Below, piece by piece: positions 2,526 through 58,526 of a DNA stretch of 64,000 bases (position 1 is its first letter; each line of letters begins with the position of its first letter). The translations under genes and the position numbers were made by a program. This stretch comes from Enterobacteria phage GiZh. The DNA is taken from the sequence record NC_054903.1; one strand, written 5' to 3'. The notes below the pieces were generated by a model. That model was given only the letters and a program-made list of their open reading frames with translations. It did no database searches and was not told where the DNA came from.

Positions 2526-3550
2526 ATCTTAGCATATTTAGATAACCGCATTTTAGCCATCAACCCCTGGGCAATATTATTTTTCATATATTCCATAATT
2601 TGTTCAGGGGTTGCACCTTCCTTTCTAATCATATCATTAACATCTTTTGATTTCCAGGGAGATTTATCCCAAAACATAACCCTTTCTCCTGCATCAACTA
2701 ATTTAGTCATTCGCTTAATAGTGTCAGGATGACGAGGTTCATTATCTAAGACCCACACACGCCTATCTTTAAATGGAACAACTTCTAGGTCTAATTGACC
2801 ACCCGTAATAGCTATACCATTTTCAATAAAAAGTGAATCTATAGGTCCTTCTAAAACATATACATCACCATCTTTAACTCGTTCGACTCCATATATTTTT
2901 GTTGCCTCAGGATAAGCTTTGATGGTGATATATTTTTGAGGAGCATCTTTCTTTAATGCACGTCCTTGAAAAGACTCAGCTTTTCCATTAGCATTATAAA
3001 TTGGAATAACAAGACGAGGCTCAGAAATTTCCTTTTTGTATGTTCCCGGTGCTATGCTATTAACTAATTTAGGCCATTCAGTTGTAAACCAAAGATATTT
3101 CCATTTATCCTTTGGAATACAACGAGCTTTTACATATTTTATAATTGCATGGTCTTCCGCCAGTTTATCTAATCGAACACATGACGGAAGAGATTTAATT
3201 ATTTTCTTCTCAGGTTGTTTAGGAAGTTCTTTAGGTTTTTCTACTGGACGACTTTTACCTTTTTCTTTTCTTATTTCAAAGATATACTCACGATATAAAT
3301 CAGGTTCAAACTCCTTTAAATATATTCCGATTGGTGCATGATAGTTACAGTTATAACAATGAATATTTCCTTCATTATTATCACCATAATACCATCCACG
3401 AGCTTTATTCTGGTCGGTTTTTGAATCTCCACAAACAGGACATCTAAACCGTAATTTAAAAGTTGAACTATTATTTACTTGTGTGAATTTAGGTAAATGA
3501 GCTAATGCACGGTATGCAAACTCATTATCAATCCAAGGTATTGATGACAT
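2522..3550 (-). CDS. 61: DNA primase gp61
   Basis: 342 aa; MSSIPWIDNEFAYRALAHL..., zinc ribbon CPVCG...CYNC, TOPRIM-like VLDNEPRH; ATG verified at 3550-3548. Confidence 0.9.
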   Translation of the reverse strand: MSSIPWIDNEFAYRALAHLPKFTQVNNSSTFKLRFRCPVCGDSKTDQNKARGWYYGDNNEGNIHCYNCNYHAPIGIYLKEFEPDLYREYIFEIRKEKGKSRPVEKPKELPKQPEKKIIKSLPSCVRLDKLAEDHAIIKYVKARCIPKDKWKYLWFTTEWPKLVNSIAPGTYKKEISEPRLVIPIYNANGKAESFQGRALKKDAPQKYITIKAYPEATKIYGVERVKDGDVYVLEGPIDSLFIENGIAITGGQLDLEVVPFKDRRVWVLDNEPRHPDTIKRMTKLVDAGERVMFWDKSPWKSKDVNDMIRKEGATPEQIMEYMKNNIAQGLMAKMRLSKYAKI

Positions 3551-3713
3551 TTTTACTCTTCTTTTTCTTTAGATTCCTCTTTTTTTTAGGAATCTGTTCA
3601 GGACCTTTATTTACTACAGCGCCTGATGTTGTTCCAGTAGAGATATTTTCAGGATTACCACCTGAATCTCCAGCTACCATATCTTCTTTAATAAATTCTT
3701 TATATGTTTTCAT
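3528..3713 (-). CDS. small basic protein with capsid-targeting-like N-terminus
   Basis: ATG 3713-3711 with AGAGGT RBS; N-terminus MKTYKEFIKE; C-terminal KKKRNLKKKKSKN; 23-nt out-of-frame overlap with gene 61 start. Confidence 0.5.
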   Translation of the reverse strand: MKTYKEFIKEDMVAGDSGGNPENISTGTTSGAVVNKGPEQIPKKKRNLKKKKSKNVINTLD

Positions 3714-49145: not shown

Positions 49146-49619
49146 TTATTTGAACGATTTAACGTACTGAATAGAACCTTTACTATTCACAAAGGCAATT
49201 TTACCATTTTTATTATACATGGTAGCAGTACGTTGATAACCATAAGTTTGTTTACCAGATTGATAACCAACTAATGCGAAATTATCTTCGCCCATTTTAT
49301 TCTGTTTAGCGCGAATGCGTTCATGACCATGTGCCATAAGAACCTTAGCATCACCAGTTGCAATGGATCGACGAGTTTTTTCATCTTCAACTGTATTAAC
49401 AAAGTCGTCAAATGAATCAAATTTAGCATGAGATTTATTATACAATTTTCCATCTACTGCATAATTATATCCCTGTACATCCATCTCAACTTCTGTACCA
49501 TCATCCAATACAGCAGTGATTTTTTGACCTTTTTTAAATTTCAAAAGATCAGTAAAAGATTCAGCAATAATTTGAGAATTAATAGCTGCTTCAGTGATAA
49601 ATTCTTGATATGTTTTCAT
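49146..49619 (-). CDS. internal protein candidate (capsid-targeting-like N-terminus)
   Basis: 157 aa; N-terminus MKTYQEFITEA matches the recalled CTS of T4 internal proteins. Confidence 0.6.
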   Translation of the reverse strand: MKTYQEFITEAAINSQIIAESFTDLLKFKKGQKITAVLDDGTEVEMDVQGYNYAVDGKLYNKSHAKFDSFDDFVNTVEDEKTRRSIATGDAKVLMAHGHERIRAKQNKMGEDNFALVGYQSGKQTYGYQRTATMYNKNGKIAFVNSKGSIQYVKSFK

Positions 49620-49628
49620 ATGTTTCCT

Positions 49629-50045
49629 TTAAATGTAAATATTTTTACCGTAATACTTATACCAATGTGGTTTCATTAAAATTTTTTCATCAAGTCGTTG
49701 TTGACTCAATTTAATAGCTGATTTGCATGGATTATAATCATTTTTCCATTCTACTGGAATATCGCTGATGTCAGGAACTTCAGTATCTTTTATACTGAAC
49801 CCGCGTTTTAAGCATTCCGTTATAATGTCTAATTGACTCTTTCGCAAAAATTCTAACTTATCGTAAAAGAACGTAACATGACCAGAACCTAAAATAAACT
49901 CGGAAGATATTTTAAAATCTTTAACGCGCTTACCGTTTGCCACATGCTTACGAACTATACCAAAAACACGCGGCAATTCACGGTATTCTGCGATTAAATG
50001 TTGATCAGCAAGTTCAGATACTAAAGTCAAATTAATACGAGTCAT
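49629..50045 (-). CDS. denV: endonuclease V (pyrimidine dimer glycosylase) DenV
   Basis: 138 aa; [29 protein letters not shown]... matches recalled T4 endo V. Confidence 0.95.
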
Positions 50046-50104: not shown

Positions 50105-50635
<531 letters not shown>

Positions 50636-56944: not shown

Positions 56945-57130
56945 CTATTCACCTTTAGAAATTTTATCCATAACGATAGCAATTAAACCAATTAAAAATG
57001 CTACTACAAGTGAAAACACATTTTCTGCTGTAGTCAATAATCCGCATATAAATCCAACAAACATTGAAAAACTAAAAGCAGAAGCAGAAATTGCAATAGC
57101 AACATTTCGAATTAATTCACAACGTTTCAT
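56945..57130 (-). CDS. small membrane protein
   Basis: 61 aa; ATG 57130-57128 with GAGGAGAA RBS; two hydrophobic segments; directly after early promoter. Confidence 0.5.
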   Translation of the reverse strand: MKRCELIRNVAIAISASAFSFSMFVGFICGLLTTAENVFSLVVAFLIGLIAIVMDKISKGE

Positions 57131-57158
57131 TTTATTCTCCTCGGTAGTTGATAGGGTA

Positions 57159-57189
57159 ATAGTATCACTACCCTATCTAAAAGTAAACT
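57159..57189 (-). promoter_or_regulatory. T4-type early promoter
   Basis: minus strand GTTTACT, 17 nt, TACTAT. Confidence 0.5.
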
Positions 57190-57422
57190 TATTTTTTACG
57201 AAAAATTGATTTATTTTCTGCTGCCCATTTTTCAATAACTGCAGCAGGACCAGTAACAACAATTTTATCACCGTAATCTTCTGCGGCGAGTTGACCGAAA
57301 TTATCTAATGCATCACGAAGAACTCCATGAGGCATTTCACCCATTTTATCTTTCTTGCCGGTGTAAATAAACTCAACTTTTACATCAGAAGATTCAGCGA
57401 TAAACTCTTTGAAAGTTTTCAT
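57189..57422 (-). CDS. internal protein I-like (capsid-targeting N-terminus)
   Basis: ATG 57422-57420 gives MKTFKEFIAESSDVKVEF... (77 aa); track start 57488 is TTG inside the promoter -35; position upstream of 57B/57A as T4 ipI. Confidence 0.6.
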   Translation of the reverse strand: MKTFKEFIAESSDVKVEFIYTGKKDKMGEMPHGVLRDALDNFGQLAAEDYGDKIVVTGPAAVIEKWAAENKSIFRKK

Positions 57423-57456
57423 TTTGATTTCCATTTGGTTTTGTTTTGATAGAGTA

Positions 57457-57487
57457 ATAGTATCACTACTAAAACCCTGTGTAAACA
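57457..57487 (-). promoter_or_regulatory. T4-type early promoter
   Basis: minus strand GTTTACA, about 18 nt, TACTAT. Confidence 0.5.
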
Positions 57488-57498
57488 ACTTTGTGAAA

Positions 57499-57756
57499 TT
57501 ATTTTAAATCTTCTAATCGTTTCTTCATCTTAGAACCATTTTTAGCAATTTCTCCTGCATCTGAGCATAATGCTAAAAGCGCTTTAACTTTAGTTTGGTC
57601 TCCTTTAAAAGATGAAGGATCGACTGCAGCAGCAAGTTCTTTAATACGAGAGAAAAGACGCTCAGCTTCAGCTAAAGCCATTCCAAGCTTTACTTCCATA
57701 CCGTGGGAAGATTCGGTGATAGTAGTTTTTGTAGCAAACTCTTTGAAAGTTTTCAT
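57499..57756 (-). CDS. internal protein candidate (capsid-targeting-like N-terminus)
   Basis: 85 aa; N-terminus MKTFKEFATKT; ATG verified; own early promoter. Confidence 0.55.
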   Translation of the reverse strand: MKTFKEFATKTTITESSHGMEVKLGMALAEAERLFSRIKELAAAVDPSSFKGDQTKVKALLALCSDAGEIAKNGSKMKKRLEDLK

Positions 57757-57786
57757 TTTATTTTCCTAATTAATTTTGATGAGATA

Positions 57787-57817
57787 ATAGTATCACTACC
57801 TCATCAACGTGTAAACA
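57787..57817 (-). promoter_or_regulatory. T4-type early promoter
   Basis: minus strand GTTTACA, 17 nt, TACTAT. Confidence 0.5.
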
Positions 57818-57828
57818 ACTTTGTGAAA

Positions 57829-58525
<697 letters not shown>

Positions 58526-58526
<1 letters not shown>

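Follow-up and report, generated by a model that had tools for sequence, protein, structure and literature searches.

Organization of the ip5-ip6 internal-protein locus of Enterobacteria phage GiZh

Internal proteins (IPs) are pre-made effectors delivered with phage DNA, and they have been characterized as diverse defence proteins with only a capsid-targeting leader (CTS) in common (PMC3012670). Phage T4 carries one ipI gene between 57B and trna.4; the single ipI at this site, stated in an earlier note on the DNA studied here, is confirmed by the T4 gene order 57B-ipI-trna.4. T4 IPI/IPI* inhibits GmrS/GmrD, a type IV restriction enzyme from E. coli CT596. In T4, Ip1, Ip2, and Ip3 inhibit one GmrSD enzyme each, in every case a different one and without cross-protection, and all proteins encoded at the two Ip loci have been proposed to have GmrSD variants as targets; ten further ip genes, assayed against five more active GmrSD systems, yielded no new inhibition (Silas et al., 2025; PMC12373910). 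That different Ips act against different GmrSD-type enzymes has been put forward in the literature (Rao and Black, 2010; Silas et al., 2025), where the question of which targets Ip5 and Ip6 have has also been posed.

The architecture of the IP locus has also been described. Analogous elements at this locus were noted by Repoila et al. (1994), as cited by Arbiol et al. (2010, PMC2839356), and on the strength of that citation the arrangement is already known, its first description dating from 1994. Arbiol et al. (2010), to whom over 30 IP variants were known, considered that these elements may drive IP shuffling (PMC2839356). Comeau et al. (2014) took the same view for phages PST and T4, between which they found five IP differences (PMC4122927).

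In this study, we analyzed a stretch of 64,000 nucleotides of Enterobacteria phage GiZh (NC_054903.1), hereafter the window, with particular emphasis on positions 57189-57756, where the earlier note had recognized two adjacent internal-protein genes. Both open reading frames (ORFs) are present as placed, on the minus strand and of the IP type, and the interval runs exactly from the ip6 stop through the ip5 ATG. Judged by their sequences, these genes are ip5 and ip6, already named internal head protein genes of T6-type phages. Our explanation of the region as a whole, in which we place high confidence, is that ip5 and ip6 are unrelated IP-class genes residing as self-contained cassettes in the polymorphic 'ipI locus'.

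The genes around the locus are all encoded on the minus strand, in the order gene 1 (dNMP kinase), 57A (58284-58526), 57B (57829-58284), ip5 (57499-57756), ip6 (57189-57422), trna.4 (56945-57130), trna.3, trna.2, and the tRNA cluster. The variable IP locus has conserved borders: on the left 57B, annotated as gp57B in PST and T4, and on the right trna.4, which encodes a 61-aa hydrophobic protein (phrog_1692; tRNA.4 in the PST, JLBYU24, and T4 annotations). The ip5 gene (ORF-A; ipV in PST) encodes 85 aa with the N-terminus MKTFKEFATKTTITESS, and ip6 (ORF-B; ipVI in PST) encodes 77 aa with the N-terminus MKTFKEFIAESS. A promoter/hairpin cassette on the same strand precedes each of the three small genes: the PeSL-like cassette 1 (57757..57828), after which AGGA and a spacer of 7 nt lead to the ip5 ATG, cassette 2 (57423..57498) before ip6, and cassette 3 (57131..57188) before trna.4, the latter two recognized from the promoter motif, RNA folding, and cassette alignment. 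Separately, 57B (57829-58284, minus strand) matches over its full length the Pfam family Acb1 (PF23474, E 2.6e-60), an anti-CBASS cyclic-nucleotide phosphodiesterase, and is called 'RNA ligase' in RefSeq-style records; an anti-defence gene therefore adjoins the IP locus.

Both MKTF starts have an AGGA or GGA Shine-Dalgarno sequence 7 nt to their 5' side. The earlier note regarded the N-termini in the automated ORF list as artefacts running across the promoters, which is correct for ip6 but not for ip5, the latter being listed from its true ATG. The 99-aa form of ip6, annotated as such in some GenBank records (e.g., JLBYU24), begins at a TTG at 57488 and crosses the promoter, and is therefore an artefact. 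An in-frame ATG four codons upstream of the ip6 start (MEIK-MKTF, 57434), used by some database entries, has no Shine-Dalgarno sequence. Mis-annotation of Ip6 is recurrent in public records, the TTG-initiated 99-aa form or the MEIK- extension entering the promoter and hiding the N-terminal CTS.

The ip5 promoter comprises GTTTACA, a 17-nt spacer, and TACTAT with a TG-extended -10, whose TG stands two bases ahead of it, at 57816-57787 (-35 GTTTACA at 57816-57810; -10 TACTAT at 57792-57787), and a promoter of identical description precedes ip6 at 57486-57457. Before trna.4 stands a GTTTACT variant at 57188-57159 (-10 TACTAT at 57164-57159), which begins right after the ip6 stop. The motif GTTTACW-N17-TAYWAT is thus found in three copies within 660 bp, one before each small ORF. 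Throughout the 64-kb window it matches 17 times, always on the minus strand, compared with 0.03 matches expected from shuffled sequences, and these are therefore real T4-type early promoters, which bears out the earlier claim of a canonical early promoter before each of the two genes. They also fit TTTACW-N17-TAYWAT, the consensus reported for PST/T4 PeSLs (PMC4122927). Neither a late promoter (TATAAATA) nor a middle promoter was found in the intergenic regions before ip5 and ip6.

Hairpins accompany these promoters. When five cassettes were folded, z-scores ranged from -3.2 to -4.5, none of 200 shuffles was equally stable, and the hairpin enclosed the -10 region. In cassette 1, the hairpin at 57807-57776 has the -10 box in and next to its loop (-15.5 kcal/mol, z -3.7, 0/200 shuffles as good); cassette 2 contains an interrupted hairpin within 57488-57441 (z -3.2), and cassette 3 forms a perfect 12-bp hairpin at 57177-57150 (-17.4 kcal/mol, z -4.5). 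A terminator scan found no U-tract or terminator-like site at the hairpins, and they are therefore not classical terminators. Covariation analysis of ten cassettes gave 75.7% pairing in the outer stems vs. 74.2% in shuffled controls, values that are indistinguishable; since pairing was no better than in the controls, we claim no selected RNA structure, and any function of the hairpins as RNA or DNA structures is unproven.

Ip5 is 100% identical to RB15 ip5 and Ip6 is 100% identical to PST ipVI; the UniRef name of the latter is Ip6, and the sources name the two proteins Ip5 and Ip6. Ip5 belongs to phrog_3499 ('internal head protein'; full-length match, E 1.2e-49) and Ip6 to phrog_8111 ('internal virion protein'; full-length match, E 3.5e-51), both small families confined to T4-like phages. 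The 1.4-kb locus has matches in 757 phage records and is at least 80% covered in 263 of them, among which are Escherichia phage JLBYU24 (99.7% over the locus), the nearest full genome, Yersinia phage PST (98.6%), and T6 (98.2%). Close Ip5 proteins (at least 80% identity, tblastn) occur in 267 phage records and close Ip6 proteins in 244, and the two are among the commonest Ips in sequenced Tequatrovirus genomes. T6 has ip5 and ip6, T2 has ip5, and in RB15 the site is occupied by four ip genes in the order ip5-ip9-ip7-ip8. The two-gene arrangement of the window is the standard one of T6 and PST, real but ordinary, and adds no new kind of element or arrangement. In a separate group of T4-like coliphages, 228 records carry an approximately 47% identical paralogue of Ip5 beside the lysozyme gene, which places it in the second IP locus (e.g., NC_024794, 63938-64189, and NC_028780); mature domains of the Ip5 type are therefore present at both IP loci.

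Alignment of the window with T4 reveals how the genes are exchanged. The two sequences are near-identical up to and including the first leader codons, a stretch that takes in the end of 57B, the first promoter/hairpin, and the 5'UTR; the mature domains cannot be aligned, and identity returns at TTTCACAAAGTTGTTTACA, which forms the left half of the following promoter. T4 lacks ip6 and rejoins the window at the right half of the trna.4 promoter, which makes ip6 a clean insertion relative to T4. The promoter/hairpin motifs that enclose ipI in T4 enclose ip5 in the window, where ip6 forms an additional cassette.

The same pattern emerged when three cassettes of the window were aligned with two of T4 and five of RB15, ten in total. 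These share the invariant core GTGATA(C/T)TATTA, on either side of which three types of left half and three types of right half are freely combined, which indicates crossovers inside the promoter core. Cassette 1 hardly differs from the cassettes that follow 57B in T4 and RB15. The left half of cassette 2 equals that of the cassette found after T4 ipI and after RB15 ip5, and its right half and 5'UTR equal those of the cassette before RB15 ip8. The trna.4 cassette of T4 has the same left half as the ip6 cassette of the window and the right half of the window's trna.4 cassette. We also observed that the ip6 cassette of the window (57441-57488) and the trna.4 cassette of T4 form hairpins that are interrupted and bulged, as the two arms of each derive from different cassette types; these bulges look like scars of past crossovers in the GTGATACTATTA core. 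Homology is not limited to the promoters: a 32-nt exact repeat, GATTTAAAATAATTTCACAAAGTTGTTTACAC, is shared by the ends of 57B and ip5, including the last three codons and the stop (GAT TTA AAA TAA), and the starts of ip5 and ip6 share 31 nt at 94% identity, which carries the homology into the first ~20 nt of the genes.

Ip5 and Ip6 both start with MKTFKEF, in which F4 and F7 are the aromatic residues, and an I-x-E motif follows. Within the CTS, positions 4 and 7 are important for targeting, and positions 8 and 10 are important for its processing (PMC9026906). The capsid-targeting-like leader that the earlier note had seen on both proteins is therefore present, with the targeting positions 4 and 7 kept and an I-x-E end. 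From motif matches, the Ip5 leader MKTFKEFATKTTITE is predicted to be cut by gp21 after E15 (I13-T14-E15|S), a site that resembles the I-T-E|A at residue 19 of T4 IPI, and the Ip6 leader MKTFKEFIAE after E10 (I8-A9-E10|S), as in T4 IPII and IPIII. The predicted mature proteins would comprise approximately 70 aa (Ip5, pI 9.2) and approximately 67 aa (Ip6, pI 6.5, with 11 basic vs. 11 acidic residues). In AF2 models, the leaders are unstructured (pLDDT <50) and detached from the folded domains. The two genes carry the marks of the CTS-bearing IP class, namely an MKT(F/Y)(K/Q)EF leader, an (L/I)-x-E site, and a position in one of the two variable IP loci, which are 57B-trna.4, where ip5 and ip6 lie, and the neighbourhood of gene e.

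Other CTS-like leaders were encountered in the window. An ORF of 61 aa at 3528-3713 (minus strand), directly upstream of the primase gene 61, is a homologue of T4 gp61.1 (phrog_1823) and starts with the CTS-like MKTYKEFIKE|D (MKTFKEFIKE|D in T4 gp61.1), followed by a low-complexity, Lys-rich peptide; it could be an unrecognized packaged peptide. A third CTS gene at 49146-49619 (minus strand; 157 aa, MKTYQEFITE...) belongs to the Ip4 family (phrog_3155) and has the length and position of PST ipIV. It lies in the second IP locus, with the neighbours 49629-50045 and 50105-50599. There, denV stands between the lysozyme gene e and ip4, at the place where PST has ipIII; neither ipII nor ipIII was found in the window.

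We propose that each cassette consists of five parts: an early promoter of the T4 type with an overlapping hairpin, a short 5'UTR containing a Shine-Dalgarno sequence, the CTS, a variable mature domain, and a stop codon with the next promoter's left half behind it. The CTS would dock Ip5 and Ip6 into the scaffolding core of the prohead, where the prohead protease gp21 would cut the leader after the Glu of I-x-E (E15 in Ip5, E10 in Ip6), and the mature proteins of approximately 7.5 kDa would remain in the DNA-filled head and enter the host with the DNA. After injection, their most likely function would be to block particular host defence nucleases as ready-made inhibitors, with GmrSD-family type IV restriction variants that cut glucosyl-hmC DNA as the foremost candidates. 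We infer packaging, cleavage, and injection from the leader motif and the analogy with T4 IPI-III, and the analogy also points to the anti-restriction role. Cassettes may be swapped, gained, and lost at short homologies provided by the recurring promoter/hairpin motifs and possibly by the leader codons that the genes share, and such exchange would explain the presence of ipI in T4, ip5-ip6 here, and ip5-ip9-ip7-ip8 in RB15. The host-defence role suggested in the earlier note agrees with the favoured published view of the IP class; it is the current hypothesis for that class and not a new one. Finding the targets of Ip5 and Ip6 would aid host-range prediction for therapeutic T-even phages.

Some evidence bears on which enzymes these targets may be. 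T6, carrying ip5 and ip6, and T2, carrying ip5, are both still restricted by GmrSD-ECOR21 and GmrSD-ECOR17 (PMC12373910), which makes these two enzymes unlikely targets of Ip5 and Ip6 at their natural dose. This restriction, together with the ten ip genes that found no match among five GmrSD systems, is the ground for a rather unlikely reading in which Ip6 or Ip5 is an injected inhibitor of a host defence outside the GmrSD variants characterized so far, possibly not of type IV at all.

We find it unlikely that Ip5 and Ip6 are packaged in a mainly structural capacity, neutralizing the charge of condensed DNA or assisting head assembly with no specific host target. Such a role was long supposed for IPII and IPIII; in T4 heads, lysines of internal proteins lie in contact with the phosphates of the DNA (PMC3012670), a T4 IPIII mutant has a head-assembly defect (PMC9026906), the non-T4 Ips are so far without a target (PMC12373910), and mature Ip5 is basic. 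Mature Ip6, however, is near neutral and hence a poor DNA counter-ion, all three T4 Ips are specific anti-restriction proteins (PMC12373910), and close relatives swap the locus wholesale for unrelated proteins, which fits accessory arms-race genes.

It is very improbable that the two products are early cytoplasmic proteins that are not packaged at all, their shared 5' codons being kept only as homology for cassette recombination. The early promoters, the only ones at both genes, and the 94%-identical repeat that enters the first ~20 nt of the genes are consistent with this explanation. The leader, however, is kept at the protein level across unrelated Ips, including the positions found experimentally to be important for targeting and cleavage, I-x-E ends both leaders despite their unequal lengths, and ten such residues are enough to package foreign proteins in T4 (PMC9026906).

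The relation to T4 IPI was assessed by sequence and by predicted structure. In BLASTP against T4 IPI, Ip5 aligns over residues 1-26 only (14 identities) and Ip6 over residues 1-14 only, and Ip5 and Ip6 match each other only over residues 1-17. IPI, Ip5, and Ip6 belong to separate PHROG families (4363, 3499, and 8111, respectively), and Ip7, Ip8, and Ip9 are different again. A tblastn search with mature IPI across the window returned nothing (E of 0.46 or worse). There is no Pfam or NCBIfam family for Ip5 or Ip6, and none for T4 IPI in NCBIfam. No PDB chain, IPI included, was found by sequence below E 0.7 for either protein. AF2 models, built from shallow alignments, predict an all-helical two-helix hairpin for Ip5 (pLDDT 71) and a small ferredoxin-like beta-alpha-beta-beta-alpha-beta domain for Ip6 (pLDDT 81), whereas IPI* has been described as two beta-sheets with helices flanking them at the N- and C-terminus (PMC3012670). 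Structure searches gave no match for Ip5; the Ip6 model matched Ip6 of VR7 best in BFVD (E 8.5e-12) and otherwise only generic ferredoxin-like structures, and neither protein matched IPI. When Ip6 was used for an exhaustive profile search of 1.84 billion representatives, 7 matches at E <=0.001 were obtained, the five best being Ip6-like phage proteins or fragments, and no remote link to any characterized family emerged.

With similarity limited to the leader, separate PHROG families, no tblastn match, and predicted folds that appear to differ, neither gene is an ipI allele or a diverged copy of one; the alignment to T4 IPI called for in the earlier note thus speaks against the 'second diverged copy' of ipI that it had entertained. 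The idea that ip5 and ip6 are duplicated, diverged ipI alleles encoding IPI-family GmrSD inhibitors of shifted specificity is hardly tenable and is refuted at the level of sequence homology: both genes occupy the genomic slot of ipI, the leaders are common, and the Ip5 leader MKTFKEFATKTTITE is nearer to the 19-residue IPI leader MKTFKEFTSTTTPVSTITE than to the IPII/IPIII type, but past the leader there is no similarity to IPI or between Ip5 and Ip6, the remote-homology families differ, structure searches did not match IPI, and the predicted all-helical Ip5 appears not to agree with the described IPI* structure. On sequence grounds, there is no ipI in the window, and two unrelated IPs stand where T4 has IPI.

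Compared with known systems, Ip5 and Ip6 resemble T4 IPI in genomic slot, in the upstream promoter/hairpin cassette, in the kind of leader, that of IPI ending in I-T-E, and in being small once mature (67-76 aa). They differ from it in the mature domain, which is unrelated by sequence and by PHROG family and whose predicted fold appears to differ from the published description of IPI*. The cassettes resemble PeSLs (Arbiol et al., 2010; Comeau et al., 2014) in that an early promoter is combined with a hairpin, small variable ORFs are flanked, the region is hyperplastic, and half-sites are reassorted between phages. Nevertheless, the T-even elements of the IP locus are analogues rather than homologues of the RB49/phi1 PeSLs (Arbiol et al., 2010; PMC2839356), from which they differ in their T4 early-promoter consensus and in AT-rich stems of variable size; in the window elements, the hairpin encloses the -10 box and is not followed by a U-tract. 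The closest counterparts are RB15 Ip5 and PST Ip6, identical proteins in the same 57B-trna.4 slot with the same promoter motifs, from which the locus of the window shows no substantial difference.
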